Virus record (IMG/VR): IMGVR_UViG_3300045988_139374
Span: 128,001-192,000 of that record
Source: a virus
Length of the DNA stretch: 64,000 nucleotides
Reading direction: 5' to 3' (one strand)
The notes under the pieces were generated by a model. The model did no database searches. It saw only the letters and a list, made by a program, of their open reading frames with translations, and had not been told where the DNA came from. The position numbers and the translations under genes were made by a program. This document shows, piece by piece, positions 30,978 to 46,587 of the stretch; the first letter of the stretch is position 1, and each line of letters opens with the position of its first letter.

Positions 30978-31967
30978 ATGACAAATGTAGAGATGATCTT
31001 AAAATTAATGGAACCAGAGCTCGATACTATTCAACTAGCTAAATTGAAGAACGTGCTTGACACAATCTTAAGAACATCAAGAAACGTCCTACCAAATGAA
31101 GAATTGATAGAACGATTCAAACAACAGAAGAGCTTAGTAGGATTGAAACCATCTTCATTAAATGGATATGTAACAGAGGTTAGAGCAATGGCAAGATACT
31201 ATAATGATAAAAGCTATTGCGATATTACTACTGCTGATATGAAGGATTATCTTGCTTATATGGTTAAAGCAAGAAATCTTCAAGCTGCTACATTACAGAC
31301 TAAGATTAGAGCTATTAGCTCTTTCTATGAATTCTTAGTAAATGAAGAATTTATTGATAAGAATCCTACTAATAAGATTGAAAGAGTCTTGTGTGAAAAG
31401 AAGATCAAGAAAGCTTTCTCTAATGCTGAGATGGATGCTATGAGAGCAGAATGCTTAACAAAGAGAGATAGAGCATTCTTTGAGTTCCTTTATTCTACTG
31501 GAACTAGACTTGCAGAAGTCATTGCCCTTAATGTAAAGGATATCAATTTCTCAGAAGGAGAAGTTATTGTCTTCGGTAAAGGACATAAGGAAAGAGTTGT
31601 TTATCTAAGTAACATTTGCATGAAATATTTACAAGAATACTTAGAAGAACGATATGCTCAACCAGATGAACCTTTATTTACACACTTGACAAATGGTCAT
31701 AGATTGACTCCTAGAGCAGCAGAATTAATTCTTAAAGATATTGGCGATAGAGTAGGAGTAGAAAATGTGCATCCTCACCGATTCCGTAGAACTTGTGCTA
31801 CTCACTTGATGGACAGAGGAATGCCTGTTGAACAGATTCGAGAAGTACTCGGTCACGCCAAGTTAGAGACTACTATGATTTATTGTAATGTGAATAGCAG
31901 TAAAGTTAAAGCTAGTTTTAAAGAAGCATTTAATAGAGATACATATTTTAATGATGTAAATATTTGA
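30978..31967 (+). CDS. tyrosine recombinase (XerC/D / Rci-like); candidate invertase of the fibre cassette locus
   Basis: SAM-like N-domain. Catalytic signature TGTRLAEV (R), GKGHKERVV (K), HPHRFRRT (HxxR), LGHAKLETTMIY (H..Y). Confidence 0.8.
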   Translation: MTNVEMILKLMEPELDTIQLAKLKNVLDTILRTSRNVLPNEELIERFKQQKSLVGLKPSSLNGYVTEVRAMARYYNDKSYCDITTADMKDYLAYMVKARNLQAATLQTKIRAISSFYEFLVNEEFIDKNPTNKIERVLCEKKIKKAFSNAEMDAMRAECLTKRDRAFFEFLYSTGTRLAEVIALNVKDINFSEGEVIVFGKGHKERVVYLSNICMKYLQEYLEERYAQPDEPLFTHLTNGHRLTPRAAELILKDIGDRVGVENVHPHRFRRTCATHLMDRGMPVEQIREVLGHAKLETTMIYCNVNSSKVKASFKEAFNRDTYFNDVNI

Positions 31968-32041: not shown

Positions 32042-33250
32042 ATGATGACGAAAAAAGAATTAATTGACTTTTTAGTTGTATCTGGATACACTAGTAAGTT
32101 AATTAAAAAGATCAAATATGTTGGAGTAAATTATAAAGGAGAAGATATATTTGAATTTACCCACATTGGTCGCACGATATTGATCAATGCTACCGATCTA
32201 GCAAACTATCTCAGAGAATATGGTAGCTATATTAGTAGATATGAAGATGAAGAGAAAGATAGCTTTAAATATTTGTGCCAAAAGTATAGTTCTCATATTC
32301 TTGAACCTATTGTAAGATATTGTGATAATATCTTTGATCCAAATGATTATATTGGGTATAGACATGCAGATGATCATTATACATTTGGAAGTTGCACTAT
32401 TTTAAAGAATCTTGCAAGTAAAGATTGGAAGTATAAAACTATCAATGCAGAATTTACTCCAAATAATGCAATAAAGTTCTTGACTACTACATATGTATAT
32501 ACAATGTGTAGATGCGGAACTGTTAATTATATTACATTAGACGATGCAATGTCTCAATACCCTACATGTACCAAATGTAGTTTGATCAGCCACATTACTT
32601 ATCAATTGAATCATGATAGAAGTGAATCTAATTCTAGTATTCACTTCTATGATGCAATTGATATTAATCATTGTAGATTTAAATGTATTAATTGCGGTAC
32701 TATATACACTGAAAATATGGAAAGTGTTGTGGTACAAAATAGGAGATATGGTAAATGCGTAGCTTGCTATGCTAAAGAGCAGATTCCGAAAATTATTGGA
32801 AAGAAGCATGGCAAACTTACAATAGTTGATGCAGTTCCTGTAATTGATGAGAATGATCATCATATATCTTACTATAATGCAAAATGCAAATGCAAGTGTG
32901 GAAGAACTGTATACGCTAAATATGAAATTAGACCTTCTGGGAACAAATTATACGGAACCAGCTGCAAATATTGCGATAAGAAATATCCTGGGTCCATGGA
33001 GGGTATTGATGCTCGTAAAGGAGAGAAGCATGGTAAGTTAAAAATCATAAAGAAAGCATATACATATTACAATGCTGATGGCATTAAAGATTTTAATACT
33101 GTGCAACGTGTAATCTGTCAATGTGAATGTGGAAACTTTACCATAGTTCCATTTAGTGCTCTTAAATTAGGTAAAGTAAAATCTTGTGGTCATTGCGGAA
33201 AGAAAATAACTCTTCCTTTCCCTTATGATTTGTCATTTTATGAAATGTAG
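32042..33250 (+). CDS. multi-zinc-ribbon repeat protein (paralogue family of 23063 and 62393)
   Basis: SD AAAGGAG. Repeated modules: G.KHGKLTIV..C.C.CG, CxxC pairs, and KSCGHCG. Confidence 0.5.
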   Translation: MMTKKELIDFLVVSGYTSKLIKKIKYVGVNYKGEDIFEFTHIGRTILINATDLANYLREYGSYISRYEDEEKDSFKYLCQKYSSHILEPIVRYCDNIFDPNDYIGYRHADDHYTFGSCTILKNLASKDWKYKTINAEFTPNNAIKFLTTTYVYTMCRCGTVNYITLDDAMSQYPTCTKCSLISHITYQLNHDRSESNSSIHFYDAIDINHCRFKCINCGTIYTENMESVVVQNRRYGKCVACYAKEQIPKIIGKKHGKLTIVDAVPVIDENDHHISYYNAKCKCKCGRTVYAKYEIRPSGNKLYGTSCKYCDKKYPGSMEGIDARKGEKHGKLKIIKKAYTYYNADGIKDFNTVQRVICQCECGNFTIVPFSALKLGKVKSCGHCGKKITLPFPYDLSFYEM

Positions 33251-33281
33251 TATAATAAAGAAGGTAAATAATCTTTAATAT

Positions 33282-33324
33282 AAAAGGAGTGGATTCCATT
33301 CGCCCACTCCTTTTATTTTTTTTT
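33282..33324 (+). terminator. rho-independent terminator
   Basis: Stem AAAAGGAGTGG / CCACTCCTTTT followed by a long T-run. Confidence 0.7.
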
Positions 33325-33394
33325 CAAAAAGTAGATTAAAATTCAACTTCATAGTAATCCATATTGTGATAATGGTAGAATGGGGGTTAAAATA

Positions 33395-34218
33395 ATGGCT
33401 ACAATTAGGCAAATTAAAGTTAAAGATACATTGTATGATATTTCACCGTCTCCTAGTGGTACGCTTGATACCACTACTAAAGATAATGCATTTGCTTCTA
33501 GTGATGTTGCTCAAGCAAGTGCAACTTCTTGGACTGATGTAGCTGCTCTTGCTGCAACTGAAACTAACAAGAGCATGTTCACAAAAGCTACTCAGATGAT
33601 GAAAAATACCAGATACCTATATAATATTATTGGTACTGGTTTTAGTACTTCTAGTACTATTAAGAAAGCTATTGATGGAAAAGCAGCATCTAATCATAGT
33701 CATGATCTGAGTGCTATGATCAATGGACTTTCTGTTGGATCTGCTACTCCTCAAGATGCGGATTATTATGTGTGCCAATATGCGGGGGGGGGAACACCAC
33801 TTCCACATATCATAGAAGGCCGATGACTGCTCTTTGGGATTATATTAAGTCTAAAGGAAATAGTACTTGGCAACCTAAAGGAAGCTATGCTGCTGCAAAC
33901 CATAGTCACAATTATGCAGGATCTGGAAGTGCTGGTGGATCTGCAAATAGTGCAGTAAAGTTGGATACAGCAACTGCTGGTTCTACTACTCAACCTGTAT
34001 ACTTTAGTGGTGGTAAACCTGTAGCAATTGGATATACTATTGCTAAGAGCGTTCCTGCTGATGCTAATTTTAGTAATACTTGGCGTGGAATTCAGAATAA
34101 TCTTACTTCTACAGCAACAGATCAGTCCCTATCTGCTGCTCAGGGTAAAATTTTGAAAGATGCTCTTGATAAAAAGACTGGAGTTAGTGTATCTGGTACC
34201 ACTGTAGTATTTGGATAA
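33395..34218 (+). pseudogene. tail-fibre paralogue A, split into two frames by a G9 tract
   Basis: ORFs 33380..33826 and 33772..34218 overlap at the G-run. One extra G (G10) gives a single product, ..YYVCQYAGGGNTTSTYHRRPMTALWDYIKSK..GTTVVFG*. The N-terminus is homologous to fibre B (FASSDVAQ, RYLYN..GTGFST, IDGKAA.NHSH). Confidence 0.7.
33784..33792 (+). repeat. G9 homopolymer (candidate phase-variation / slippage tract)
   Basis: Counted directly: tgc GGGGGGGGG aac. It is the only long G/C run I found in this AT-rich window. Confidence 0.85.
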
Positions 34219-34238
34219 TAAATATTATAAATAAAATT

Positions 34239-34275
34239 CCCATAGGATTTTTATATCCTATGGGATTCTTTTATA
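34239..34275 (+). terminator. terminator after fibre A (duplicated at 43769)
   Basis: 10-bp stem CCCATAGGAT / ATCCTATGGG followed by ATTCTTTTATA. Confidence 0.6.
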
Positions 34276-34276
34276 A

Positions 34277-34570
34277 TCTGACGCTTCTATTAAGATCAAA
34301 ACAAAGTCTGGAAAATTTTCATATAGTAGCACTTACGGAAGAAATTATACATTTTATGATTATGAAGGAATATTTATTTCTGCATCAATTGACGGTATTG
34401 CATTTAACAATGATAATTATTTGTATAATTTGTATTATCCATCATTATATTCAATTCGTGTTAGTGATAAATATATTATTAAATCTTTCAATATTATAAG
34501 TTCTGATTCAGGAGGAAATAATATTTCTGGTATTGGAGATAATTTAAACATTATTATTTGCTATATTTAA
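34277..34570 (+). other. start-less fibre C-terminal cassette (97 codons)
   Basis: Core TGACGCT at 34279-34285 is preceded by an in-frame TAA. Reads SDASIKIKTKSGKFSYSS..NLNIIICYI*. Contains no Met codon and has no SD. Its own terminator follows. Confidence 0.55.
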
Positions 34571-34577
34571 AATTATT

Positions 34578-34612
34578 CAATAGAGAAATCTCTATTGGTT
34601 TTATTTTTTTTT
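34578..34612 (+). terminator. rho-independent terminator after the cassette
   Basis: 9-bp stem CAATAGAGA / TCTCTATTG followed by a long T-run. Confidence 0.65.
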
Positions 34613-34638
34613 GTAGAATATATTAAAATACAATAATC

Positions 34639-34645
34639 TGACGCT
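34639..34645 (+). repeat. TGACGCT core site with only a stub (TAA-SDAITK*)
   Basis: AATAATCTGACGCTATTACGAAGTAG. Confidence 0.5.
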
Positions 34646-34675
34646 ATTACGAAGTAGTCTGAGAAATCTGCCAAA

Positions 34676-34720
34676 CCTCTATAAAAGGGCCTAAAATGGG
34701 CATTTTAAGAGGGTAAAATC
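34676..34720 (+). repeat. orphan copy of the fibre B leader/promoter-like sequence
   Basis: CTATAAAAGGGCCTAAAATGGGCATTTTAAGAGGGTAAAAT here, versus CTATAAATAGCCCAAAATGGGTAATTTTAAGAAAGGAAAT at 35123-35162 just upstream of the fibre B ATG. Confidence 0.5.
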
Positions 34721-34880
34721 GAGTGATTTTACACTTATTTTCAGTACTAAAAATTCAATTCAAGATAATAAATGTTTGATCAATAATCAATCTTAATTTA
34801 AAATATATAACAATATGGTAATGAAAGATGGTAGAAAAATCTTTTACCTTTAACAGCAGACACACAAACTATCTTTCATA

Positions 34881-35067
34881 CATGAAGCATTCGATTTAAG
34901 ATTTATTGTGAAGACCGCTTTTAAGAGAGTCCCTTGGACTATAAACTGTGAAGACTTCGTTTAAGAAAATCAGATAAATCCATATCCAAGCCATTAAATG
35001 TAGTAGCGTCAGATTAAAATTGTGAAGCCTGCTTATATAGATTTTTGTGAAGACGACGGTTAAGATT
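34881..35067 (+). promoter_or_regulatory. five direct repeats TGTGAAGMC-N-TTTAAGA flanking a core site
   Basis: Copies start at 34881 (CATGAAGCATTCGATTTAAGA), 34907, 34947, 35021 and 35046. The minus-orientation core at 35005-35011 lies between copies 3 and 4. Confidence 0.5.
35005..35011 (-). repeat. TGACGCT core site (minus orientation) with a 24-codon stub
   Basis: The reverse complement reads TAA TCT GAC GCT ACT ACA.. = SDATTFNGLDMDLSDFLKRSLHSL*. Confidence 0.5.
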
Positions 35068-35171
35068 ATTACTCGGTGTGGTCTTTATGATCACCCCGGA
35101 ATTTCTTTTTTAACAAAATATCACTATAAATAGCCCAAAATGGGTAATTTTAAGAAAGGAAATTTAATTTT

Positions 35172-36431
35172 ATGGCTATAATTGATAAAATTAAGGTTGG
35201 TAGCACTACCTATGATGTGTCGCCTTCTGCTTCTGGTACTCTGAACACTACTGGCACTACTAAGTTTGCTTCTAGTGACGTTGCTCAGGGAAATGCAACT
35301 GGCTGGACTAATGTAGATCAGATGACCACTGCTGATAACCATGCTACTCTGTTTACTAAGATCACTCAGATGGCAAAGAACGTCCGCTATCTGTACAATG
35401 TTCTTGGTACTGGCTTCTCCACTGGTTCTACTGTTAAGGGTCAGATTGATGGAAAAGCAGCAGCTAATCACTCTCACAAGGTTGCTCAACTGCCTACTTC
35501 TAGTACTCAAGTTAACTCCAATGACTATATTCCTACTTCTGCTCTGATCTATTCTATGAATCAGACTCTAACTTCGCTAAATGACGCTAGTAATAAACTT
35601 GGAGTCAGGATTTATAATACTAAATATGCAGTTGGAGGTATTCCTACCAAATCCCAATTTGCTGCAACTGACACTGTACAAAGCATTATTATTAAAATGC
35701 TAGGAGATATGGGTCAGAAACCCATTGACTCTTCTACACCTAATACAAGATATAAGTCTCAGAATCTTGGTACTTGGTCTAGTGTTAGTGATGTAGATAA
35801 TTTTCTTTATAGTTGTTGTCATGATACTGGTTATTATGGTGCTACTATTGGTAGTTATGTTACGATTAAAGATGGTGTATATAATAAAGAATGGATTATT
35901 GCTGGTTTTGATTGTGAAAAGAATCATAAAGCTTCCGATGGCAATACAAAGGATAATGGATATGGTATATGCTTAATACCTAAGAAGAGCTTAGGTAATT
36001 ATGTATGGGATTCTAATTCTATTATAAATGGATACAACGGATCTGAAATGCATAAGTCTACATTACCTGTAGTTGCGAATAATCTTAGAAAAGTATTAGG
36101 AAATCATCTTGTACAGCGTAATGTCCTTCTGAGTAATGCTGTAGATTCTAACTATTATGCTAAAGGCTATTTTTGGACTACTGCATATTGTACTCTTATG
36201 AGTACAGGACAAGTAACTGGTACATTTGCTTCTAATAGAAACAAGTATGATGATGGAGAAGCTAATTATAAACTTCCTTTGTTTAATTATGAAATATGGA
36301 GTTTTGATACCTGGGCCTGGTTGCGAGGGCTATTCGGCTACGGTGTCTATGGCCTTACCACTTCTGGTGGTTCTGGTTATGACATCTGTTACGTTAGTCA
36401 CGGTCTTCGCCCGCTCATTTATATTAGGTAA
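35172..36431 (+). CDS. tail-fibre paralogue B: constant N-terminal part, NDAS junction, and a C-terminal receptor-binding domain ending in the DGR variable region
   Basis: The N-terminal ~105 aa are homologous to fibre A. The in-frame core is at 35582-35588 (LNDASNK). The C-terminus WAWLRGLFGYGVYGLTTSGGSGYDICYVSHGLRPLIYIR* matches TR apart from changes at adenines. Confidence 0.8.
   Translation: MAIIDKIKVGSTTYDVSPSASGTLNTTGTTKFASSDVAQGNATGWTNVDQMTTADNHATLFTKITQMAKNVRYLYNVLGTGFSTGSTVKGQIDGKAAANHSHKVAQLPTSSTQVNSNDYIPTSALIYSMNQTLTSLNDASNKLGVRIYNTKYAVGGIPTKSQFAATDTVQSIIIKMLGDMGQKPIDSSTPNTRYKSQNLGTWSSVSDVDNFLYSCCHDTGYYGATIGSYVTIKDGVYNKEWIIAGFDCEKNHKASDGNTKDNGYGICLIPKKSLGNYVWDSNSIINGYNGSEMHKSTLPVVANNLRKVLGNHLVQRNVLLSNAVDSNYYAKGYFWTTAYCTLMSTGQVTGTFASNRNKYDDGEANYKLPLFNYEIWSFDTWAWLRGLFGYGVYGLTTSGGSGYDICYVSHGLRPLIYIR
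35580..35597 (+). repeat. in-frame core site inside fibre B (putative expression-site crossover)
   Basis: AAT GAC GCT AGT AAT AAA at codons 137-142. Shares AATGACGCT with the cassette heads. Confidence 0.55.
36317..36417 (+). repeat. DGR variable region (VR)
   Basis: 101 nt aligning to TR 37379-37497. There are 12 mismatches, all at TR adenines, plus one 18-nt gap. A GC-rich 3-prime end, GGTCTTCGCCCG, is shared (IMH-like). Confidence 0.85.
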
Positions 36432-36468
36432 TGGAACTAGCCACCTTGTGTGGCTAAGTGGAATTACC
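36427..36468 (+). promoter_or_regulatory. hairpin immediately 3-prime of VR (candidate DGR target-recognition structure and/or terminator)
   Basis: Inner stem TAGCCAC / GTGGCTA nested in outer stem GGTAAT / ATTACC. Overlaps the stop codon. Confidence 0.5.
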
Positions 36469-36537
36469 GTAATATAAATGAAAGGTGAAGGCTTAACGAG
36501 TAAATATATTATTAATATAAAATAAGAGGTGGTTTGT

Positions 36538-37347
36538 GTGTCTGTCGTTAAGGGTAAAAGAAATCAATCTGATGTTGAATATTTTGATTATGCATATAAA
36601 GTTGTGGAGCATATAACTAAATTTCTTTTATCTGATCTTGGGATTAAGAAAACTTATAGAGACTTAAAAGTTTTTACTTATAAATCTCATATGGAGGAAG
36701 CTGATAAAGAAGAATTTGAGCATTTAGTAAATAAGTATGATTTGGAATTGGAAACAGATTTTCCTAATTGGCTAATGTGCTATTATAGAGAAACATTATT
36801 AACAATCATGAGAGATCTAATCAATAATATATCTGCAGCTTATACACTATATCCAAATTCTGTTTATGAATTTAATATCAAGAAACAGTATATTTCTGAT
36901 TCTATAGCTAATTGTTTCGATTTAAAACATCAACTCCAATTAGTAATTAGAATATTTCCAGCAAATATGAAGAAATATATTCCATTTGTAAAAGAAATCG
37001 ATAAGGAAATAGAGCTTCTTAAACAGTGGCGAAAGAACTTTACAGGAATTTCTAAGAAGCATTGCTACAATCAAGATGAAATCGCTAAGAGAGATGCTAT
37101 TAAGAGAGTAAATAAGATTGAAGCAAAGAATGAGCGTAAACTTCAAGTGAACAATAATTTCCTTGTAGAATATATGAAAGCAGTTTACACTCAACAAGTG
37201 CTTATGGATAATCTATATCATACAACCTTCTATTATAATCAGCAAAATCAGTATTGCTCCGAACTGCCTATTGCAGCTTGTACATTCTTTGATCAAAATG
37301 GATATTATATTGGAGATTCTGCTCATGATTTTGTTACAACTAACTAA
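36538..37347 (+). CDS. avd: DGR accessory protein (Avd-like by position; longer than canonical Avd)
   Basis: Lies between the target gene and TR. Helical, basic/acidic composition. AAGAGG lies 8 nt before the in-frame GTG at 36538 (track start GTG 36529). Confidence 0.45.
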   Translation: MSVVKGKRNQSDVEYFDYAYKVVEHITKFLLSDLGIKKTYRDLKVFTYKSHMEEADKEEFEHLVNKYDLELETDFPNWLMCYYRETLLTIMRDLINNISAAYTLYPNSVYEFNIKKQYISDSIANCFDLKHQLQLVIRIFPANMKKYIPFVKEIDKEIELLKQWRKNFTGISKKHCYNQDEIAKRDAIKRVNKIEAKNERKLQVNNNFLVEYMKAVYTQQVLMDNLYHTTFYYNQQNQYCSELPIAACTFFDQNGYYIGDSAHDFVTTN

Positions 37348-37378
37348 ATAGTAAGGTGACTCTCTATAAATAATCTCG

Positions 37379-37497
37379 CTGGTTGCGAGGGCTATACGGC
37401 AACAACAACCTCAACAACAACAATGTCTATGGCCTTACCACTTCTGGTGGTTCTGATTATAACAACTGTAACAATAGTAACGGTCTTCGCCCGATCA
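37379..37497 (+). repeat. DGR template repeat (TR)
   Basis: 119 nt, rich in AAC/AAT codons in the VR frame (LRGLYGNNNLNNNNVYGLTTSGGSDYNNCNNSNGLRPI). Non-coding location upstream of RT. Confidence 0.85.
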
Positions 37498-37651
37498 ACA
37501 GCATCTTGGCAATTTAAGGATCGAAAGATCTGGCCAGGATGTCTGTATGAGGAGGGAGTTCCCTTTCCGAAAGGAAGAAACAATAAAGCTGGCTACGGTT
37601 CTGGCATTACGATGCTGAATCTATTGGGCTGGTATATTTTTTTTTATTTTT

Positions 37652-38938
37652 ATGATTATTGATTTTAGTAATGAAGATTGGGGCGAAAATCCCTGTGAAT
37701 ATACTGAAGGAAAATTAGATTCTATTGCAGATCCAGATAAATTATATCAATCTTATAGAAAAGCTTCTAAACCAATTTATTATAAAGCATCTACTCAAAG
37801 ATATGGATTAAATCTATTATCTAATATTGCTATTGCAAATGAAGCATTAAATAATGGATCTTATAAAATTGGAGATCCATATGAATTTATTCTCACAGAA
37901 CGCGGTAGAATTAGATATGTAAAAGCATTATATATGTTTGATCAAGTAGTGCAGAGATCTTTCAATGATAATGTATTAAATCCTGCTATTGCTAATAAGA
38001 TGATTTATGATAATGGAGCTTGTGTAAAAGGAAAAGGTGTTGCTTTTACAAGAATGAGATTTAAGCAGCATCTACAACAAGCATATTATCAATTTGGATA
38101 TGATGGTTATATAATGATCATCGATTTTTCTAAATATTTTGATAATATTCTTCATCAAGAAGCTTTAAAACAATTCGAACCTCTATTAACGCCAGAAGAA
38201 TACAATTTTCTTAAAATTACTTTTGATACATTCAAACTAGATGTATCTTATATGTCAGATGCAGAATATCTAGAAGCTAGAGATTCTCTGTTTAATCTTC
38301 TAGAATATTCTATGATGGCAAAAGAAAATTTCAAAGGATTAAAGCTTCTTGAAAAGTCTGTTGGAATTGGTAATCAAACTTCTCAAGGAACTGGAATGTA
38401 CTATCCTCATGAAATAGACAATTATGTGACTATAGTAAGAGGATATGGATTATATGGAAGGCATATGGATGATACATATGTATTTGCTAAAACTAAAGAA
38501 GAATTACAACAACTTCTTGAAGAAATAAAAGAATTGTGTAAGAATCTTGGAATTCATATTAATCTTAAGAAAACTAGAATAGAACCCATCAAGAATACAA
38601 TTTCATATCTTAAAATAAATTATAAAATTATTGAAACTGGAAGAGTATTTGAATTAGTCCCAAATAAAGTATTTAAAAGAGAAAAAGATAAATTAACAAA
38701 ATATAGGGATCTTTGCATTCAATATAAAATGACTGCTATTACAGTTCTTCAATGTTATCTTAGTTGGAGAGGTGTATATAATAAATTTGATTCTAAAAGA
38801 AAAATATATGCACTGGATTGCTATTTTAAAGATCTTTATTGTTTAGGATTTAGAGATACAAATCTATATGATTTGTTGCATTTCTATATGCGTGTAGAAA
38901 GAGAGAAATTAAATAACTATCCAGTCATGAAATATTAA
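37652..38938 (+). CDS. DGR reverse transcriptase
   Basis: IGNQTSQ (the DGR-RT hallmark) and YGRHMDDTYVF (YxDD box). No SD before the ATG. Confidence 0.85.
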   Translation: MIIDFSNEDWGENPCEYTEGKLDSIADPDKLYQSYRKASKPIYYKASTQRYGLNLLSNIAIANEALNNGSYKIGDPYEFILTERGRIRYVKALYMFDQVVQRSFNDNVLNPAIANKMIYDNGACVKGKGVAFTRMRFKQHLQQAYYQFGYDGYIMIIDFSKYFDNILHQEALKQFEPLLTPEEYNFLKITFDTFKLDVSYMSDAEYLEARDSLFNLLEYSMMAKENFKGLKLLEKSVGIGNQTSQGTGMYYPHEIDNYVTIVRGYGLYGRHMDDTYVFAKTKEELQQLLEEIKELCKNLGIHINLKKTRIEPIKNTISYLKINYKIIETGRVFELVPNKVFKREKDKLTKYRDLCIQYKMTAITVLQCYLSWRGVYNKFDSKRKIYALDCYFKDLYCLGFRDTNLYDLLHFYMRVEREKLNNYPVMKY

Positions 38939-38943
38939 AATAC

Positions 38944-38980
38944 TAGGTAAGGAATTTATTTCCTTACCTATTTTATTTTT
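38944..38980 (+). terminator. rho-independent terminator
   Basis: 10-bp stem TAGGTAAGGA / TCCTTACCTA followed by TTTTATTTTT. Confidence 0.7.
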
Positions 38981-39026
38981 AATTTTTTATTTGACAATTA
39001 ATTACTAAATTTAAGGAGGCTTATAT

Positions 39027-39617
39027 ATGTCCGACAAACGTACTGATTACATTTCTAAAGATCAAATGTATATGGGAATTGCTCAACTTGCTGCAATGAG
39101 ATCTAAAGATCCTAATTCTCAAGTTGGTGCAGTTTTTGTATCTTCTAATGATCGTATCCTTAGCATTGGTTATAATGGATTTCCTAATGGAATTTCTGAT
39201 GATGAATTCCCTTGGGCAAGAGAAGCTGAATCTGAAGAGAATACTAAATATCCTTATGTAGTTCATGCAGAAGAAAATGCTATTCTTAACTTCCGTGGAG
39301 ACCTTTCTGCTTTTAAAGGCTCTACTCTTTACGTAACAATGTTTCCTTGCCATAACTGTACGAAGGCTCTTATTCAAGTTGGCGTTAAGCATATTTATTA
39401 TGGTATTAATAAATATCCTGATACGGCAGATTTTAGAGAAGCTACTAGAATGCTTGATGCTGTTGGAATCAAGTATGAACAACTGGTCAATGATATGATT
39501 ATTATATCAACAAAAGATTTTATTGATGCTTTTAATAATCTATCAGATAAATCAAGAGATTTAACAGATCTAACAGGGTTTGTTGATAGGATGAATTTTC
39601 CTGAGTATTATAAATAA
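39027..39617 (+). CDS. dCMP deaminase (ComEB/T4 Cd-like) with a C-terminal extension
   Basis: HAEENAI and PCHNCTKALIQVG zinc-binding motifs. AAGGAGG upstream. Confidence 0.8.
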   Translation: MSDKRTDYISKDQMYMGIAQLAAMRSKDPNSQVGAVFVSSNDRILSIGYNGFPNGISDDEFPWAREAESEENTKYPYVVHAEENAILNFRGDLSAFKGSTLYVTMFPCHNCTKALIQVGVKHIYYGINKYPDTADFREATRMLDAVGIKYEQLVNDMIIISTKDFIDAFNNLSDKSRDLTDLTGFVDRMNFPEYYK

Positions 39618-39747
39618 TTCTTAAAATTTCTTTTGAGGATATATTATAATATTGATAGAAAGGAGTGGTAATATGATTAGGCCACCGTAACAATAGTATT
39701 CTTAAATCTCCAAAAGTATAAAATCACTAAGGAGGATAATTTCAAAC

Positions 39748-41463
39748 ATGGAAAACAATAATGTCAATCTATCTAAATATGGATATCAAGAGCAAAGATA
39801 TCCTATTGATACTACTGGCTATAAGCAACTTCATGACTATAACATCGAGTATCAGATGGCACATCAGAAGGAGTTTAACTTCCTTCAGCCTCTTCCTAAT
39901 GATCTTATGTCTACTACTAAGACATATCCTCATTCTGATGAGTTTGAGTTTTCTGGACAGCTTGAAATCATTAATTATGATAAAGCTTGTGAAGAAGACC
40001 TTAGGGAAGGAAATGGTTTTATTGTAGAACCAGCTGGTAGAAATATCAAGAAAGATCTTCATGCTGAGGATGGTATTTTCTCTCCTAAGTTTGGACAAAC
40101 CTTGGCTGATACTAATCCTTTTATGGATCGTTATCGTTGTCGGTGTAAAGAAGGAGGGCTTCGTGGCCGTAATAATGCCGGTTTGCGTTGTCCAAAATGT
40201 GGTCATCTATGTTCTTATGTAGATGATAATTTTAATTATCGTGGATGGATTAAACTTTCTGAGCCTTATAAGTTTATTCATCCTACCTTCTACACTTATA
40301 TCGATTCTATCCTTGGTAAAGGTATCTATATCCAGGGTAATAAGCGTACTAAGCTTGAAAATATTCTTGACGTTACTGATACTCAATTGGTTCTTAATTC
40401 TATTAAGATTGATGATCCCAAACTTAAAGATGAACCGTTCTTTGGTATTGGAATGATTGCTTTTGTCGAACGCTTTGATGAGATCATGGATTATTATATC
40501 AAGAAGCGCCCTAATAAGCGTAATTATTATGATGCCATTTATCAGTCTCGTGATTCTGTATTTTCATCTTCGCTTCCTGTCATCACTACATTGCTTCGTC
40601 CGTTCGATATAGATGGCAACAACATGACCTATGAGCCAACGAATGCAATGTATACAATGATTAATAAACTTGCTACTTCTATTAATAAGAATAAAACTGC
40701 TATCCAGAGAGAACCTAAAATCAAGAACCAGCAGCTTTATAATCTTCAAAAGAAGTTTATGGAAATTTATGCTGAACAAATTTCTATTCTAGCAGGTAAG
40801 AAGGGAGATTTTAGATGTCTACTTGGTGGACGTTATAACTTCTCTTCTCGTTGTGTTATTGTTCAAAATCCTAATCTTCGTATTGATGAGATTACTATGC
40901 CTGCTGTAGCATTGACTGTTATGCTTGAGCAAAGAATTAAAAATATTCTCTGCCGTATGCATGGTATGACTCCTACACAAGCACATGATATTTGGTATAA
41001 AGCTACTATTGAGCCTAATAAACGTATAAATACCATTATTCAATCCATCATCGATGATTTTAAACACAAAGGCATGCGTGGGCTTCCGGTTATCATTGGA
41101 CGAAATCCTACACTTGCTTATGGCTCTATTCTGCAAATGTTCTGTGTTGGGATTACTGATTCTTATACCTTAGCAGTTCCTCTACAGATCTTAAAATTCT
41201 TGGCTGCTGACTTCGACGGCGACGTTATATATTGCTTGGTTCCGATGAATCAGACTTTTATTCGTCTTGCTTGGGAAAAATTCAATCCTAGGAATGCTAT
41301 GTATATTTCTAGAGATAATGGATATTTCAATCCCAATGCATTGATGCAAAGAGATACACTTATTAATGCTAATACTTTAGCAAGATTAGGAAGGGAGAAT
41401 TACACACAAGAAGATCTTAATAAGTTCGATAGAATTCAGAAAGCTATTAAAGCAGCTGGTTAA
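39748..41463 (+). CDS. multisubunit RNA polymerase beta-prime-like subunit, N-terminal fragment
   Basis: Zn-ribbon CRCKEGG..CPKCGH. LLGGRYNFSSRCVIVQNP (compare LLGKRVDYSGRSVIV). IIGRNPTLAYGSILQ (compare NRAPTLHRLGIQ). AADFDGD metal-binding motif. The ORF ends ~85 aa after DFDGD. Confidence 0.75.
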   Translation: MENNNVNLSKYGYQEQRYPIDTTGYKQLHDYNIEYQMAHQKEFNFLQPLPNDLMSTTKTYPHSDEFEFSGQLEIINYDKACEEDLREGNGFIVEPAGRNIKKDLHAEDGIFSPKFGQTLADTNPFMDRYRCRCKEGGLRGRNNAGLRCPKCGHLCSYVDDNFNYRGWIKLSEPYKFIHPTFYTYIDSILGKGIYIQGNKRTKLENILDVTDTQLVLNSIKIDDPKLKDEPFFGIGMIAFVERFDEIMDYYIKKRPNKRNYYDAIYQSRDSVFSSSLPVITTLLRPFDIDGNNMTYEPTNAMYTMINKLATSINKNKTAIQREPKIKNQQLYNLQKKFMEIYAEQISILAGKKGDFRCLLGGRYNFSSRCVIVQNPNLRIDEITMPAVALTVMLEQRIKNILCRMHGMTPTQAHDIWYKATIEPNKRINTIIQSIIDDFKHKGMRGLPVIIGRNPTLAYGSILQMFCVGITDSYTLAVPLQILKFLAADFDGDVIYCLVPMNQTFIRLAWEKFNPRNAMYISRDNGYFNPNALMQRDTLINANTLARLGRENYTQEDLNKFDRIQKAIKAAG

Positions 41464-41591
41464 TGCTAAATGCGCAATAGTAGTAGCCAGCATTTCTGAA
41501 TGAATGCTATACTCTATCATTGATATTATCAGTATATAGGCAGTACTGATGATATAAGTCAATCTCCTATTTTATAAATCTCTTAAAGAGG

Positions 41592-41634
41592 GCCGGTAGA
41601 GATTTGATTCTCTACCGGCTTTTCTTTTTTTTTT
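41592..41634 (+). terminator. rho-independent terminator
   Basis: 10-bp stem GCCGGTAGAG / CTCTACCGGC followed by a long T-run. Confidence 0.75.
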
Positions 41635-41641
41635 ATTTATT

Positions 41642-41875
41642 TTAGATATAAAATATTCTTACATTATATTTTACTATAGAAATAAGTTGTTTATTTAGAT
41701 CGATATTAAATGTAACGATTACATAATTTAAATAATCAGGGACGTAATATATGGCAACATATGGAAATCCAGAGATTGAATTTATGTCTGCACATATTGC
41801 AGATATTACAATTATATTGTTAAATGATTTCATTTCTGAAATATACATATCTCTTTGCTTAATAGAAGCGTCATT
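41642..41875 (-). other. start-less fibre cassette (77 codons), last of the minus-strand array
   Basis: Core at 41867-41873. Reads NDASIKQRDMYISEMK..NVRIFYI*. Confidence 0.55.
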
Positions 41876-42168
41876 TACATATCAAAATACCAACATTTGC
41901 ATGTAATAGGATTTTTACCATCGGTATATATTTCATTATCTGCAAGCCTTCCGACTTTTGTCATATAAACTTCACAGTTAGTAACTTTAAATGTACCATC
42001 ATCAAAATATCCACTGGCAGCTATTACAGGAAATGTATAATATCCAGCATTTCCTTTTGGATATAGTATTGGCATTGCTTGAATTATATATGCTTTAGAT
42101 AAGTACCCGCATGATGCATATTCACTATATGGAACTTTACAAGTATTAGTTTTAAGAGAAGCGTCATT
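41875..42168 (-). other. start-less fibre cassette (97 codons)
   Basis: Core at 42160-42166. Reads NDASLKTNTCKVPYSEY..CKCWYFDM*. Confidence 0.55.
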
Positions 42169-42496
42169 GTGCTTTACCTTTAATATAAAATATATTAATG
42201 ATGACTTCTGCATTTGATAAAGATGTTTTGTTAAAAGGCATAATTTTTTCATGCAATGTATCAATACCTAGTATATATAATTTTCTGCCAGTTGTCCAAA
42301 TACCAGTATTTGGATCTTGTGTTGAATCGATACTTGTAGATAGGAAAGTTAAATACATTCTAACAGTATTACTACAATATGCATAGTGAGCTATAATATC
42401 ATCATCAGTAACAGAAATATCTGTATCAAGAATAAAATAAGAAATATCATTCTTTACTCTACCTTGCTTCATTTTAATTTTAGTAGAAGCGTCATT
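42164..42496 (-). other. start-less fibre cassette (110 codons)
   Basis: Core at 42488-42494. Reads NDASTKIKMKQGRVKND..NIFYIKGKAQ*. Its TGA stop lies inside the next core. Confidence 0.55.
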
Positions 42497-42506
42497 TATA
42501 TTGGTA

Positions 42507-42767
42507 TTATAGATTTTTTAAATAAAATACAATTAATCTTCTAATAGATGAATGCATTGTTAAAGTATTATTAGGGAATCCTCTTATATCTATATAATAA
42601 CATGAATCATCTTCATCATACCATATATCTACATATTCAGCTTGCTCAGTTTTACCTGTTATTTTAGATTCAATATAAAGTCCAACAATTGGAATTCCTA
42701 AATAAAAAGCTTGTTTACTACTTTTTGGAAGAGTTAATTCTATATTATATATAATAGAAGCGTCATT
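42507..42767 (-). other. start-less fibre cassette (86 codons)
   Basis: Core at 42759-42765. Reads NDASIIYNIELTLPKSS..LIVFYLKNL*. Confidence 0.55.
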
Positions 42768-43065
42768 TACCAAAATAATAATATATTTTTATATTAAATG
42801 CTGTATTTACTTTTATTAATTTATAATCATTAATTTCAAACAATTGAATTATAGAATAAAAACTACCCTTTTCATATATTCCTTGATACATTGCTGGAAA
42901 TATATACTTAGGAGAATAATTGATAGGAAATAATGTTTGATTATACGTGGTACTATACACAGCAAATATTATATATGCTGATAGCCCAGATGGCACATCA
43001 TATCTTTCTTTATATATTCCATTCTCATCAGTTGTTACATCTTTACTCTTAATAGAAGCGTCATT
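42763..43065 (-). other. start-less fibre cassette (100 codons)
   Basis: Core at 43057-43063. Reads NDASIKSKDVTTDENGIYK..NIKIYYYFGK*. Its TGA stop lies inside the next core. Confidence 0.55.
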
Positions 43066-43384
43066 CACTAATATAATAGTATATTTTAATACCAATTTTA
43101 TCTGATGGCTTTATAAGCTGTCCATTGTCATTTATTTTATATACTTGAATTACAATATATCTATTAACAGCATCTGCAATTTTTCCATATGAGCCAGAAT
43201 ATATTGCAGGAATTATATATATTGGAACATTCATTTGATTTACTAGATTTCCAGTCATTGTGGATGTATTACTATATATCGCTAAAATATTTTTATGAGA
43301 ACTAATTCCAAATACGCCTAATGCAATTTTATATTCTCCACTGCTATCAGTTTCCACTATTTCATGTTTAATAGAAGCGTCAGA
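43061..43384 (-). other. start-less fibre cassette (107 codons)
   Basis: Core at 43376-43382. Reads SDASIKHEIVETDSSGEYK..GIKIYYYISE*, paralogous to the 42763 cassette. Its TGA stop lies inside the next core. Confidence 0.55.
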
Positions 43385-43388
43385 CTTG

Positions 43389-43673
43389 TTAAATATAATA
43401 TATAATAATTGAAACATTACGTCCATTACGAGATGCCGTGCTGCCATTAATATCTGATGTATATACAAGAATAGTTCTAATTACCCATTCAACATCTGTA
43501 GTTTTAAATATTTGAATTAATGGAATAGATGAACTGGTATTTACAGCTGGATTTATGTATGCATTTATTAAAATTCCATTAGTAAATTTATATAAGTAAT
43601 CATTGTCATTTAAACCATTTGAATATTTTCTAGGATATACGGTATCAGTTTTAATCTTAATAGAAGCGTCAAA
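43389..43673 (-). other. start-less fibre cassette (94 codons), first of the minus-strand array
   Basis: Core at 43665-43671, with TAA directly 5-prime. Reads FDASIKIKTDTVYPRKYS..NVSIIIYYI*. It contains no Met codon, so it is absent from the ORF track. I translated it by hand and found no internal stop. Confidence 0.55.
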
Positions 43674-43680
43674 TTATTAG

Positions 43681-43704
43681 ATATTAAAATACTAGGTAAG
43701 GAAT
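43681..43704 (+). repeat. 24-nt exact copy of the RT gene 3-prime end plus half of its terminator (recombination scar)
   Basis: ATATTAAAATACTAGGTAAGGAAT occurs at both 38932-38955 and 43681-43704. Confidence 0.7.
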
Positions 43705-43724
43705 CTACTAATGTTACAGTCGAT

Positions 43725-43805
43725 GGTACCACTATAGTATTTGGATAATAAATATTATAAATAAAATTCCCATAGGATTTTTATATCCTATGGGATTCTT
43801 TTATA
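43725..43805 (+). repeat. 81-nt copy of the fibre A 3-prime end plus terminator (compare 34195-34275)
   Basis: One mismatch across 81 nt. Preceded by the remnant coding sequence ..TNVTVDGTTIVFG*. An 8-nt insertion GTCTTATA lies before the core site. Confidence 0.75.
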
Positions 43806-43814
43806 GTCTTATAA

Positions 43815-44393
43815 TCTGACGCTACTAAGAATTTTGGAAATGGAAGTCTAATTAAATCTATTACTTATGAAGGATCCTATACTACAAGTACTGTTTATTC
43901 ATATCAAATCGATGATTGGCTAAAAGTAAATTGTACTTCTACTAATCCTATTAGAACAAAAATATCTAGATTATATGATATTGTATTTTTCTTCGATACA
44001 GATGTTGAGGAGTTAGCTATAAATATGCTTAGACATTTATTTGCTGTTGGAGCTGACTATAAGTATCTTGGTGGATTTATACTCATGAAGAAAATATCAA
44101 ATGAATGGACACCTGGTAGATCTCTTTCTCAGGCTAGCTTTGATTATTTTTTAGGCCCATATATAGAATATGGATTGGCACCTAAACAATTTGTTAAATA
44201 TCGAGTAATTAGAGAGAATAATGCATATTATATAGATAGATATGTTGATACATCAGAGAAAAACTACAAAAATGATAATATTTCCTATCAGATATTATAT
44301 AGGAATACAGAACCGCATAAATATTTAATATATGGAATAGATTTTGAAGATCATGTATCTGATGTTGTGAATAGTAAGCCAGTAGATCAGTAA
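43815..44393 (+). other. start-less fibre cassette (192 codons)
   Basis: Core at 43817-43823, preceded by an in-frame TAA. Reads SDATKNFGNGSLIKSITYEG.. and continues into track ORF 44025..44393 in the same frame with no intervening stop (checked codon by codon). Confidence 0.55.
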
Positions 44394-44404
44394 ATATAGT
44401 ATAC

Positions 44405-44679
44405 AATGACACTTCTAAAATAAAAACAATATACATGGATTAGGTAATGTAAAAACAACAACTAGGTATATAGATAATCAATATGGTAGTTATTATGAAA
44501 AATGCTATTATCTAGCTTCTGGAATTATGGTTGGGTATATGCTTGATCAAAGTACAATAGGATTATTATCTACATTCTTAACACAAGTAGGTAAATATAT
44601 AATGGCATTTAGATATGATAACACTGCAAAATCAATGAATACGATAGAGTGCACTATATCTATGCTTTATTATATTTAA
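44405..44679 (+). pseudogene. decayed fibre cassette (mutated core TGACACT plus a frameshift)
   Basis: Reads NDTSKIKTIYMD then TAG. An 80-codon frame (GLGNVKTTTRYIDNQYG..ISMLYYI*) continues in a different frame and has the family-typical ..YYI* ending. Confidence 0.45.
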
Positions 44680-44730
44680 ACTTTAATTCCCCCTAAACAA
44701 TATATTACAAAATATTGTAGGAGGAATATT

Positions 44731-44898
44731 ATGGACAAATCTGATTTTTATAAAATTCTTTGTTCATCTACACCTGAAGAAATTAATCACTTTATTTCTT
44801 CTAAAGGCAAGATTAAAAATGTAAATGCTATTACATTTTTAGATGATCAAACTTTACAAGATCTACATTCTAATACGGATTCGAATCAATCTAATTAA
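44731..44898 (+). CDS. small hypothetical protein (55 aa)
   Basis: Below the track cutoff. AGGAGG lies 7 nt upstream. Reads MDKSDFYKILCSSTPEEINHFISSKGK.. Confidence 0.5.
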   Translation: MDKSDFYKILCSSTPEEINHFISSKGKIKNVNAITFLDDQTLQDLHSNTDSNQSN

Positions 44899-44919
44899 GT
44901 TATTAGCTCTTTTATATTT

Positions 44920-45001
44920 GCAGGAATGGTGGAATGGCAGACACGCTAGACTTAGGATCTAGTTCTTCGGAGTGAGGGTTCAAGTCCCTTTTCCTGCACC
45001 A
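44920..45001 (+). tRNA. trnL: tRNA-Leu (anticodon UAG), class II with a long variable arm, encoded CCA
   Basis: Acceptor GCAGGAA / TTCCTGC. Anticodon stem CTAGA / TCTAG with loop CTTAGGA. T-arm GAGGG TTCAAGT CCCTT. 3-prime ACCA. Confidence 0.85.
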
Positions 45002-45033
45002 TGTAGAATTATCTCCCCTAATTCTACTCATAA

Positions 45034-45110
45034 GGGCTATTAGCTTAGTTGGTCAGAGCTTCTGGCTCATAACCGGATGGTCGTAGGTTCGAGTCCTACA
45101 TGGCCCACCA
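45034..45110 (+). tRNA. trnM: tRNA with CAU anticodon (elongator Met or lysidine-modified Ile2), encoded CCA
   Basis: Acceptor GGGCTAT / ATGGCCC. Anticodon stem TCTGG / CCGGA with loop CTCATAA. T-arm GTAGG TTCGAGT CCTAC. The 1-72 pair is G-C, so it is not initiator-like. Confidence 0.8.
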
Positions 45111-46050
45111 TTAGAGATTAAGATACCACACACGCTAACGCTATTTTAATCTCTTTTCTTTCTTGTGTATAGAGGGTGGAAGAAACACAAGATAGAGATT
45201 CAAGTTCATTTCTTTCTTTCTTCTTGAATCTCGAAGCGAGGTTCGATTCATTAGTTCCGCAACCTAATGATGGTGCAGTACGATTCTGCAGGGGATAAAT
45301 AGATTTGGCCACTCCTTTCAATTTATTCCTAACGCTTAGATCCATTTGATCTAGCCTGCGTGCCTATTTGATCGGTTACGTAAAGATTCCTGACGGGAAC
45401 TACGTTTAATTTGAAATACAATAGCCGCGTATAAAAATTGTATTTATTATTTCTTTTCTTTCTGATCAATAGAATTAAATTATAAATGCAATGGAGGATT
45501 AGATGGCCCAAATAATGACTACTGGGAGAATGTAGTAAGTCTCGAAAGTATCTACCGAGACGGGAGAATATAATGTGGCTCATATAACTATTCCTTCTGT
45601 AGGCTAGTTATTATTGCCACATTATGAATGGACATAGATACTCTTGTAAATTCTAAGGAGGCTAAGTTATACTTGTTACTACTGATCATAGTGGGTATAA
45701 CTTTATTAATGGTGGCCGCAGATGTAAAGAATTTACTGGATCTAATGTAAATCATCTAGCATTAGATTAAGAAAATAATTATGTATTTATATTGTGCGAT
45801 ATAAATATCTTAATTAAGATGAGCTGTGGGTATGAGATTGGATTATTGACCCTCTATACTACCATCTAAAGCATCCTTTTGGTAGTGAAGTTAGATGCCT
45901 TTTTCTGGTATTGGTTTTCGAAGGAAGAATAGATGTGCTCGGGCAGAACGAGCGGAATAACCTATACCCTCCTAACTAAGATTGTGGTGGACATTTATCA
46001 AGTTCGAGCCTTGAATCTTGGACAATAAGAATGATTCTATTTGAGAAAAA
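45111..46050 (+). ncRNA. candidate large structured ncRNA(s), unclassified
   Basis: About 0.95 kb with no plus-strand ORF of 60 aa or more. Visibly richer in G+C than the flanks. Lies directly 3-prime of two tRNAs. Contains many perfect local stems, e.g. 45113-21/45146-54 (9 bp), 45195-204/45223-32 (10 bp), 45414-22/45437-45 (9 bp), 45570-79/45616-25 (10 bp). T-loop-like GGTTCGATTC and CAAGTTCGAGCCTTG are present. Confidence 0.4.
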
Positions 46051-46069
46051 GAAAGAGAGATGACCGATC

Positions 46070-46573: not shown

Positions 46574-46587
46574 ATTTTTAAGATTCT

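Follow-up and report, generated by a model that had tools for sequence, protein, structure and literature searches.

How can the same short sequence lie in frame in the middle of a phage gene and also head a series of reading frames that have no start codon of their own? The question is raised by a 64,000-nt stretch of viral DNA (positions 128,001 to 192,000 of IMG/VR record IMGVR_UViG_3300045988_139374; hereafter the window), in which the 7-mer TGACGCT stands inside a tail-fibre-like gene, fibre B (35172..36431), and recurs on both sides of it before start-less cassettes. An earlier note on this DNA had proposed a tail-fibre switching system. We compared the window with contigs of its relatives (labelled L001, L002 and so on) from ENA MEGAHIT, metaSPAdes, Logan, IMG/VR and NCBI assemblies. 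The locus is probably a site-specific cassette-switching system for a tail-fibre-like receptor-binding tip, a shufflon in the broad sense: a constant 5′ part is followed by start-less 3′ cassettes, the two meet at a short in-frame repeat, and isomeric arrangements exist. Its carrier is a member of an uncultivated family of human-gut phages of ~250-280 kb; a metagenome contig from the human gut, ERZ919511 k127_45904, matches the window at 99.96% identity, and the contigs of relatives reach 240-288 kb.

Results

An invariant core in fibre B and before start-less frames

TGACGCT occurs 14 times in the window, against an expectation of 1.81 from shuffled sequence (the largest count was 5, and none of 100 shuffles reached 14). 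Two copies, at 7289 on the minus and 7461 on the plus strand, have unrelated flanks and are at chance level; the other 12 cluster at 34279-43823 (34.2-43.9 kb), where ~0.3 would be expected in 10 kb. An exact recount agreed with the strands and coordinates that the earlier note had given for these 12, and every clustered copy is read, as it had claimed, in one frame, xxT-GAC-GCT, encoding (N/S/F)-D-A. We letter the sites a to m along the window. Site d (core 35582..35588, plus strand) is the copy within fibre B; it follows 136 codons (35172..35579), so that NDA are codons 137-139, and it heads the 283 codons of the expressed cassette (35580..36431).

Nine cores head intact start-less frames of 77-192 codons. 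On the plus strand these are cassettes a (34277..34570, 97 codons, core 34279-34285) and l (43815..44393, 192 codons, core 43817-43823). On the minus strand they are e (41642..41875, 77 codons, core 41867-41873), f (41875..42168, 97 codons, core 42160-42166), g (42164..42496, 110 codons, core 42488-42494), h (42507..42767, 86 codons, core 42759-42765), i (42763..43065, 100 codons, core 43057-43063), j (43061..43384, 107 codons, core 43376-43382) and k (43389..43673, 94 codons, core 43665-43671). Ten such cassettes had been counted before; nine are substantial, and the other copies head stubs, namely site b (34637..34657, plus, core 34639-34645; six codons, SDAITK and a stop), site c (34939..35013, minus, core 35005-35011; 24 codons) and the decayed cassette m (44405..44443, plus; 12 codons), whose core is the variant TGACACT (44407-44413). 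Cassettes a and k contain no methionine codon, as had been stated, and at several cassettes a stop codon abuts the site on its 5′ side. We estimate from base composition that a random open frame at 30% GC averages ~13 codons; at the ~30% GC of this phage, the long open frames are thus not expected by chance. Nor are the silent cassettes, for the most part, decaying, which the earlier note had named as a possible refutation: compared with orthologues they show dN/dS of 0.3-1.25 and mostly intact frames. The orthologue of cassette f in L010, for example, has 88.9% nucleotide identity and dN/dS of 0.59, cassette l has orthologues in L011, L015 and L027, and at the position of m both L032 and L034 (99% identical to the window here) have an exact TGACGCT followed by a 90-codon frame.

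Aligned as a logo, 56 silent sites, all non-identical and drawn from 10 loci, have an invariant core; the right arm TCTATTAA reaches 1.6-2.0 bits at TCT and AA, and the left arm does not exceed 1.1 bits. The sites have no palindrome and consist of a 7-bp core with one arm; the one-sided conservation claimed earlier is therefore real, and it is the layout of core and arm found in R64. Is the core kept for the protein that it encodes, or as DNA? Of 38 sites detected independently by a motif resembling the right arm, 37 have the exact core in front of it and one has a core with a single mismatch. In the long genes of the phage, aspartate is encoded by GAT 349 times and by GAC 42 times, yet GAC is used at every site. 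The exact core before right arms, together with this codon bias, shows that the core is constrained as DNA, beyond the protein alone. The junction codon is AAT (N) in all expressed fusions, and TCT, AAT, TTT or TAT (S, N, F or Y) in silent sites, while the residue following NDA travels with the cassette. This pattern places the strand exchange inside TGACGCT.

Alternative fusions, empty sites and a circular junction in relatives

Do relatives carry the constant part of fibre B joined to other cassettes? A search with its N-terminal 136 aa returned 72 protein clusters, of which 65 are joined at ...MNQTL(T/N)SL before NDA, with N-termini 50-99% identical. In 57 of the 65 fusions, with N-termini given as 92-99% identical, the C-termini have at least 60 aa and fall into 22 families unrelated by BLAST; the remaining fusions end in short stubs, including NDAITK and a stop, the stub of site b (P0141, P0173). 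Homologues of silent cassettes of the window are among the expressed ones: a homologue of cassette a is fused to the N-terminus in P0126, a homologue of f is expressed in P0129, and distant homologues of g and k are expressed in P0123 and P0155, respectively.

L032 (ENA ERZ27269915 k141_230373) is 99.15% identical to the window over 41211-45225, and 97-98% identical in the recombinase and RNA polymerase (RNAP) genes. Its order is recombinase, a 402-aa gene, b, c, N-terminus, d joined to cassette a, a junction of Lb with Rd′, dCMP deaminase, RNAP and the same minus array, where La/Ra, Lb/Rb and Ld/Rd denote the left and right arms of sites a, b and d. The arms are paired (Lx,Rb), (Ld,Ra) and (Lb,Rd′) in L032, versus (La,Ra), (Lb,Rb) and (Ld,Rd) in the window. 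The silent cassette a of the window is thus the expressed fibre tip in L032 (a 233-aa fusion; 95.4% nucleotide identity), and the cassette expressed in the window has its counterpart silent there. With this tip swap and the 57 fusions at NDA, the isomers among relatives that the earlier note had named as a test have been found.

An empty site is present in L002, which carries Lb joined to Rd: relative to the window it lacks precisely the 943 bp that separate core b from core d. L017, a 1085-bp MEGAHIT k141 contig with an exact 141-bp terminal overlap, is a 944-bp circular assembly comprising leader, N-terminus, Ld joined to Rb, segment S2 and site c. The metaSPAdes contig L005 begins exactly 55 nt (its k) before the first base past core d, and this start appears to fit a branch of the de Bruijn graph at the boundary of core and right arm. 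L017 and L005 are indirect evidence that arrangements may coexist within one sample, and switching may proceed within populations at some rate.

The expression module

What moves in these rearrangements is a unit of ~944 bp, bounded by the direct sites b and d, which we call the expression module. It consists of stub b, segment S2 (34646..35004, plus, between b and c), the inverted site c, the leader (35012..35171, plus) and the N-terminal 136 codons, of which the window has one copy. In all relatives compared, stub b, the N-terminal codons and what lies between them move as a single unit between the direct sites b and d. Site c, the sole inverted site inside the module, is kept in L001, L011, L014, L015, L017 and L032, and in L010 its core has changed to TGGCGCT. 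At site b the 38-nt right arm, TGACGCTATTACGAAGTAGTCTGAGAAATCTGCCAAAC, is 100% identical in six lineages including L001, although the module of L001 is only 75-81% identical to that of the window, which points to a function of this arm as DNA.

The leader, with a conserved hairpin followed by a T-run, is the presumed promoter region, and we infer that it holds the promoter of the module. A motif search for genome-wide promoters resembling it matched inside the module only, and a scan for sigma-70 promoters (75 found versus 70.5 expected) did not rise above shuffles and is thus uninformative. Four direct TGTGAAG(A/C)C-N6-TWWAGA repeats flank site c, two per side (34900-35070): two in S2, of the form TGTGAAGAC..TTAAGA, and two further TGTGAAG repeats in the leader. 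The leader-like element CCYAAAATGGG..TTTTAAGA has two copies (34690-34713, in S2, and ~35139-35165), both confined to the module. These repeats and elements could be accessory binding sites or regulatory elements.

Fibre B has no Pfam, PHROG, NCBIfam or PDB match, and an exact look-up found nothing on record; a hypothetical protein of Roseburia phage Jekyll shares 45% identity with its N-terminus. An AlphaFold2 model of the N-terminus contains, at low confidence, helices at 57-79 and 122-142, the second of which ends ~5 residues past the junction. The C-terminal domain of the expressed cassette is modelled with pLDDT (predicted local distance difference test) >90, and a representative 70-aa tip as a six-strand beta domain with pLDDT 82-91. 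Foldseek found no match to the PDB at E<=0.001 for either model; the weak matches of the former domain were dominated by C-type lectins and were not significant.

In L023 (ENA ERZ27271590 k95_34715), from a lineage ~80% identical to the window, the N-terminus gene directly follows the HNH-like gene and is fused to the stub NDAITK and a stop. This is the position occupied in the window by fibre A (33395..34218, plus), a paralogue of the N-terminus (Pfam Phage_fiber_rpt, 4.4e-9) whose 3′ end, together with its terminator, makes up the left arm of site a. The arrangement suggests either that N-terminus modules occur in tandem or that expression can also take place from the position of fibre A.

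Position and orientation of the module across relatives

To describe gene order we name five blocks: A (DNA polymerase through DHFR, and a 293-aa gene), B (diversity-generating retroelement (DGR), dCMP deaminase, RNAP), C (55-aa, 167-aa and 3432-aa genes), D (topoisomerase, recombinase, HNH, fibre A) and F (a 139-aa gene). In the window, block D is followed by a, b, c, the N-terminus and d joined to Rd, then by B, the seven minus cassettes, l and m, and finally C. L002 has A, plus cassettes, a, Lb joined to Rd, B, cassettes and F, with no module. In L010, A is followed by cassettes, the module (b, N-terminus, d joined to a tip), four cassettes and F, with no block B; L014 and L016 have A, then b, c, N-terminus and d joined to a tip, other genes and F. 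The module, complete with c and joined to a tip, stands between l and C in L015, and in L011 it follows an inverted block C and six minus cassettes (including silent Rd and Rl) and precedes two cassettes and other genes. IMG/VR contig 121810 reads D, a left arm joined to Rd′, dCMP deaminase, RNAP, minus array, plus array and C, with no module in 21 kb. In the 259-kb IMG/VR contig 125976 arrays lie at ~155 kb, with the recombinase, at ~192-198 kb, and at ~257 kb, with the module.

L011 and L015 are 97.8% identical in block C and have the module in opposite orientation relative to C and its 3432-aa gene; at least one inversion must therefore have occurred. L015 has also lost three cassettes compared with L011. 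This loss, the empty site of L002 and the circle of L017 are products of recombination between direct repeats. By our derivation, the order in L032 is converted to that of the window in two steps by excision and reintegration, or by four inversions via site c, and both routes are compatible with the data.

A cassette diversified by a retroelement

The cassette expressed in the window is followed by a DGR (36529..38938, plus) comprising a 272-aa accessory ORF (open reading frame; 36529-37347), a template repeat (TR, 37424-37497) and a reverse transcriptase (37652-38938; Pfam RVT_1, PHROG 1423). The TR and the variable repeat (VR, 36344-36417) within the cassette align over 74 nt with 8 mismatches, 8/8 at TR adenines, as had been claimed. 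With a reverse transcriptase and a TR/VR pair differing only at TR adenines, the DGR of cassette 35580-36431 is genuine. Upstream of the 74-nt alignment (36300-36343 versus 37380-37423) the TR is longer than the VR (GGCAACAACAACCTCAACAACAACAAT versus GGCTACGGT), and homologue length varies in this part; VR length, besides sequence, thus appears to be variable.

The DGR-type domain is silent in L002, L011, L018, L020, L021 and L032. Among the 120 clusters that best match fibre B, 88 are without the N-terminus, and start at an internal methionine (MLGD...) or with junk that runs into NDASNK; the reason is that these genomes carry the DGR-type domain as a silent cassette. Silent DGR-type cassettes at 8320-9189 of L018, 4421-5297 of L032 (reverse complement) and 7126-7996 of L011 have no adjoining accessory gene, TR or reverse transcriptase; directly after them comes the dCMP deaminase gene or another cassette. 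The DGR is thus either an optional add-on or located elsewhere in those genomes.

A candidate recombinase

Which enzyme could act on the core? As the earlier note had stated, a tyrosine recombinase gene lies at 30978..31967 (plus, 329 aa; Pfam Phage_integrase, 3.9e-39; SAM-like N-terminal domains), and the residues R..K..HxxR..H..Y are present by eye. The protein is Xer-like: it scores 209 bits with the NCBIfam model for XerA (cutoff 220) and is also below the cutoffs for XerC and XerD, its best solved structure is XerA (PDB 4a8e, 5e-31), and its best plasmid match is an annotated xerA with 35% identity. Against integron-integrase models it reaches 100 and 69 bits (cutoffs 265 and 435). No shufflon-recombinase annotation was found among the 40 plasmid matches listed, which were sampled evenly from the 5000 best, and no direct comparison with Rci was made. 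In tblastn searches of the window and seven loci we could not detect a second tyrosine recombinase or, with Hin and gamma-delta resolvase queries, any serine recombinase at E<=1. The gene stands 1.3-3.3 kb from the first site in L018, L019, L020, L021, L032, the near-identical L004 and L031, and the window, and in one genome of 259 kb the recombinase is found together with three arrays and the module. This linkage makes the Xer-like recombinase the most likely catalyst of exchange at the core. Of the earlier proposal that it drives switching, the gene itself is thus confirmed; its role is assigned by linkage, and the candidate enzyme is Xer-like, with no affinity to Rci seen among the models and matches listed.

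Discussion

The arrangement suggests the following mechanism. The expression module would supply the leader and a constant N-terminus of 136 residues that ends in TGACGCT (aaT-GAC-GCT, N-D-A), and each start-less cassette, opening with the same core and the right arm TCTATTAA, would supply a tip. Most cassettes, at 70-110 codons, would fold by their models into small beta domains; one has 192 codons, and one, of 283 codons, is also mutagenised by the adjacent DGR. A conservative recombinase would swap strands inside the core and so join the N-terminus in frame to a different tip, and the module seems to change place among cassettes and among arrays that are up to ~100 kb from each other. By such changes of tip, which may alter host range, the phage can probably change which bacteria it attaches to. 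A more specific version, which we put forward tentatively as possible though short of probable, is that the module is itself a mobile unit that excises as a circle (b x d) and reinserts before any silent cassette in arrays over ~100 kb, like an integron turned inside out. Together with the DGR tip and a poly-G fibre (see below), the phage would then stack three diversification mechanisms.

Could the system instead work by inversion only? Site d would then recombine with any of the minus sites (41867-43665), flipping the intervening 6.3-8.1 kb, and events between direct sites would be forbidden, as with Rci; Rci systems invert and do not delete between direct sites. Seven cassettes are indeed inverted relative to d, the one-sided arms are sfx-like, and with site c the module could travel along direct arrays through inversions only, four of which would lead from L032 to the window; at least one inversion also separates L011 from L015. 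However, the flip of the DGR, dCMP deaminase and RNAP genes that the earlier note predicted appears in no genome; what differs between genomes is the position of the ~944-bp module. Among seven distinct contigs of relatives (L002, L018, L020, L021, L032 and the short L007 and L008; L003 repeats the sequence of L020), block B was not found inverted relative to the flank genes, which are those of the recombinase or DNA-polymerase side, L007 and L008 retaining no flank gene. None of the contigs with a small tip expressed has the fusion followed by an inverted RNAP gene. The arrays are mostly tandem and direct, the empty site, the cassette loss and the circular junction are products of the kind that inversion does not give, and the recombinase is Xer-like, with no Rci affinity seen. 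We therefore regard a switch limited to inversions as unlikely.

The locus could also be an evolutionary mosaic with no programmed switch, in which paralogues are occasionally shuffled between co-infecting phages by homologous or short-homology recombination and the motif is purely protein-structural. This would suit isomers that come from different samples and are 1-7% apart, cassettes that decay, and cassette repertoires that vary widely among strains. We nevertheless consider it improbable, since the codon bias shows constraint on the core as DNA, left arms have no homology, so that exchange relies on 7-16 nt of identity and is always resolved inside the core, start-less frames of 77-192 codons persist, the recombinase is linked to the locus, and in one sample the assembly graph apparently branches exactly at the core. 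That cassettes are expressed independently, through internal starts, translational coupling or joining at the RNA level and with no DNA rearrangement, is very improbable: some sites do hold an ATG in another frame (aaATGACGCT), where gene callers predict small ORFs, but two cassettes have no methionine codon, several have an upstream stop abutting the site, and fusions to the N-terminus are observed directly in DNA. The chance that assemblers mis-joined contigs at a short repeat is close to nil. The data are short-read metagenome assemblies, in which some contigs end near sites and two Logan contigs end at a true ~100-bp repeat; the sequence common to sites, however, is at most ~40 nt, shorter than every k used (55-141), so the joins needed spanning reads, and the same junction classes recur across independent samples and assemblers.

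Several observations nonetheless weigh against a programmed switch as we propose it. The isomers, all from different samples and 1-7% divergent, may be traces of events that are rare in evolution; L017 may represent a graph cycle or a duplication in tandem and not a free circle, and L005 has a coverage of only 3.6x. No near-identical strain was found to express a minus-strand cassette of the window; when nine window cassettes were concatenated and searched against a set of 5.8 billion proteins, none of 8000 candidates was below 1e-5. Decay is seen in two cassettes: m has decayed in the window, and h is cut to 35 codons in L032 and L034. The Xer-like enzyme could have another role, in integration or in resolving concatemers, and the search for other recombinases in this genome covered 64 kb of ~270 kb. 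The tail-fibre identity of fibre B is itself indirect, coming from the Pfam fibre repeat of its paralogue, the match to Jekyll and targeting by the DGR.

How does the proposed switch relate to known ones? In R64, Rci acts on a constant 5′ adhesin part (pilV) with alternative 3′ cassettes, at sfx sites with a 7-bp core and one conserved arm (in part from PMC9881135). The present locus shares the constant 5′ part with 3′ cassettes and the 7-bp core with one arm, its candidate enzyme is likewise a tyrosine recombinase, and the outcome in R64 is a change in receptor specificity. In contrast to the few invertible segments between inverted sites of R64, the arrays here are mostly tandem and direct and lie at several positions up to ~100 kb apart, and the expression module itself changes place; the Xer-like recombinase, a phage as the carrying element and the direct-repeat products (empty site, circle) are further differences. 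Closer in setting is Rin of temperate Bifidobacterium siphophage prophages, where an adjoining tyrosine recombinase serves an Rc N-terminus and five Rv cassettes, mutually very dissimilar and each preceded by an asymmetric 11-bp rix, in a compact block between Rc and rin (PMC6109161). Both systems are phage-encoded, with an adjoining tyrosine recombinase and a constant N-terminus whose variable C-termini stand behind a short asymmetric repeat. The present system differs in its size (several loci, each with 9-13 cassettes, in a phage of ~270 kb), in the DGR target among its cassettes and in the essential genes that lie between its sites, and we found no sequence similarity to the Rin site or protein. 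Min of p15B, with multiple crossover sites, forms many isomers (PMC6109161). Like Min, Gin of Mu and Cin of P1, the locus would switch a phage fibre C-terminus by site-specific recombination of DNA; theirs, however, is an inversion-only system with a serine invertase and an enhancer, and no serine recombinase was detected here. A BV01-like Phocaeicola gut phage, temperate and of the ~50-kb class, has a recombinase-flanked tail-fibre switch with three cassettes in 1.7 kb and the 10-bp motif TGGGAGAACT, and shows several configurations in metagenomic reads (PMC13596623). It too comes from the gut and switches several cassettes at the distal end of its fibre gene, but it has neither a DGR cassette nor a mobile N-terminal module.

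Outside phages, the vsa locus of Mycoplasma pulmonis (HvsR) is a single lipoprotein locus that switches by inversion only at a 34-bp vrs site. It resembles the present locus in its single expression site with promoter and 5′ end, many silent 5′-truncated genes, a site inside the coding sequence and a tyrosine recombinase, and differs in encoding a bacterial surface lipoprotein, in being restricted to inversion and in occupying one locus. Integrons hold promoter-less cassettes that are recombined at attI and palindromic attC by the Xer-related IntI, and their excised circles can reintegrate. Cassettes with no promoter, an Xer-related recombinase and excision and reintegration of a circle are common ground; the logic is reversed, as here the promoter and N-terminus appear mobile while the cassettes stay, and the fusion is made in frame inside a gene. 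The recombinase is below the IntI cutoffs and the sites are not attC-like palindromes. The locus is thus a much larger, multi-locus variant of known shufflon logic that includes a DGR-diversified cassette. To call it a new system, as was done at first, is an overstatement given Min, Rin and BV01; our literature searches, however, turned up neither a jumbo-phage shufflon nor one that includes a DGR-diversified cassette.

For gut phages that have not been cultivated, the main thing to be learnt is their host range. The 22 families found on one N-terminus suggest that a single ~270-kb lineage can present dozens of unrelated tips, one of them DGR-hypermutable. No switching system described for a phage receptor-binding protein would come near it in size, and it would be the first from a jumbo phage. 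If the module does excise and reintegrate, this would be a mode of switching not described for shufflons. The constant N-terminus, the 7-bp junction and beta domains of ~70-110 aa would also make a natural scaffold for specificity engineering. In practical terms, assemblies of these phages break or differ at the locus, and gene callers mis-annotate cassettes as small ORFs.

Other features of the locus and its lineage

The spacer between the diverging sites k and l (43674..43814; hairpin 43768-43795) contains a ~100-bp copy of the fibre A 3′ end and terminator: 34190-34278 and 43710-43810 are near-exact duplicates that include the fibre A 3′ end, a 28-nt terminator hairpin and the left arm. The duplicate may stem from an unequal exchange in the past or be what is left of a second gene like fibre A. 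At 43764, two Logan contigs, each from a different run, come to an end; we rejected these ends as a sign of heterogeneity, as they coincide with the repeat. The 167-aa genes beside cassettes were likewise rejected as a common chaperone, being unrelated proteins of equal length.

Fibre A is split by a G9 tract (33784-33792), the sole G/C run of at least 7 in the window, into ORFs 33380..33826 and 33772..34218; G7 or G10 at the tract would give a single fibre A frame of 273/274 aa. The tract is G8 in L004, which has 99.96% identity to the window, and G9 in L019. The tract may reflect poly-G phase variation of a second fibre, or a sequencing error. Poly-G phase variation has been reported for Campylobacter phages.

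A megablast of 30900-45000 against GenBank phages gave zero matches, so this lineage is not among deposited phages. A scan of GTDB genomes with the 19-nt site gave three isolated matches, which are at chance level and thus provide no prophage or host clue. In IMG/VR, scans for the expressed junction found two contigs only. One is the unrelated 250-kb viral contig L012 (IMGVR_UViG_3300021256_001754), which has no nucleotide similarity to the window and carries an identical 18-nt junction, ACTTCGCTAAATGACGCT, at 11716-11733. There it precedes a 110-codon start-less fibre-like frame and adjoins an expressed fibre with ...SITQLNDD...; it may mark a distant relative of the system or be a chance 18-mer.

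Between site d and the minus array lie two passenger genes, for dCMP deaminase (39027-39617, plus) and an RNAP beta′-like subunit (39748-41463, plus). The latter has 571 aa in the window and 488 aa as called in several relatives, because 0.5-1.5 kb is inserted there exactly at window position 41210/41211. In L002 (15471-17018), L008 and L032 the insert carries an HNH/NUMOD4 endonuclease gene; it has no Rfam match as a group I intron, and may be a mobile intron, an intein-like element or a free-standing homing endonuclease. Upstream of fibre A are genes for topoisomerase II subunit A (27820-30189) and the HNH-like protein (32042-33250). An Rfam search of 33000-46700 found two tRNA genes (44920-44998 and 45034-45107; 58.5 and 66.9 bits) and nothing else. 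They stand between the cassette arrays and the 3432-aa ORF (46673-56971), the conserved right flank of the arrays, which has Peptidase_C39-like, CHAP and phage-lysozyme matches and probably encodes a giant virion-associated lysin or tail protein.

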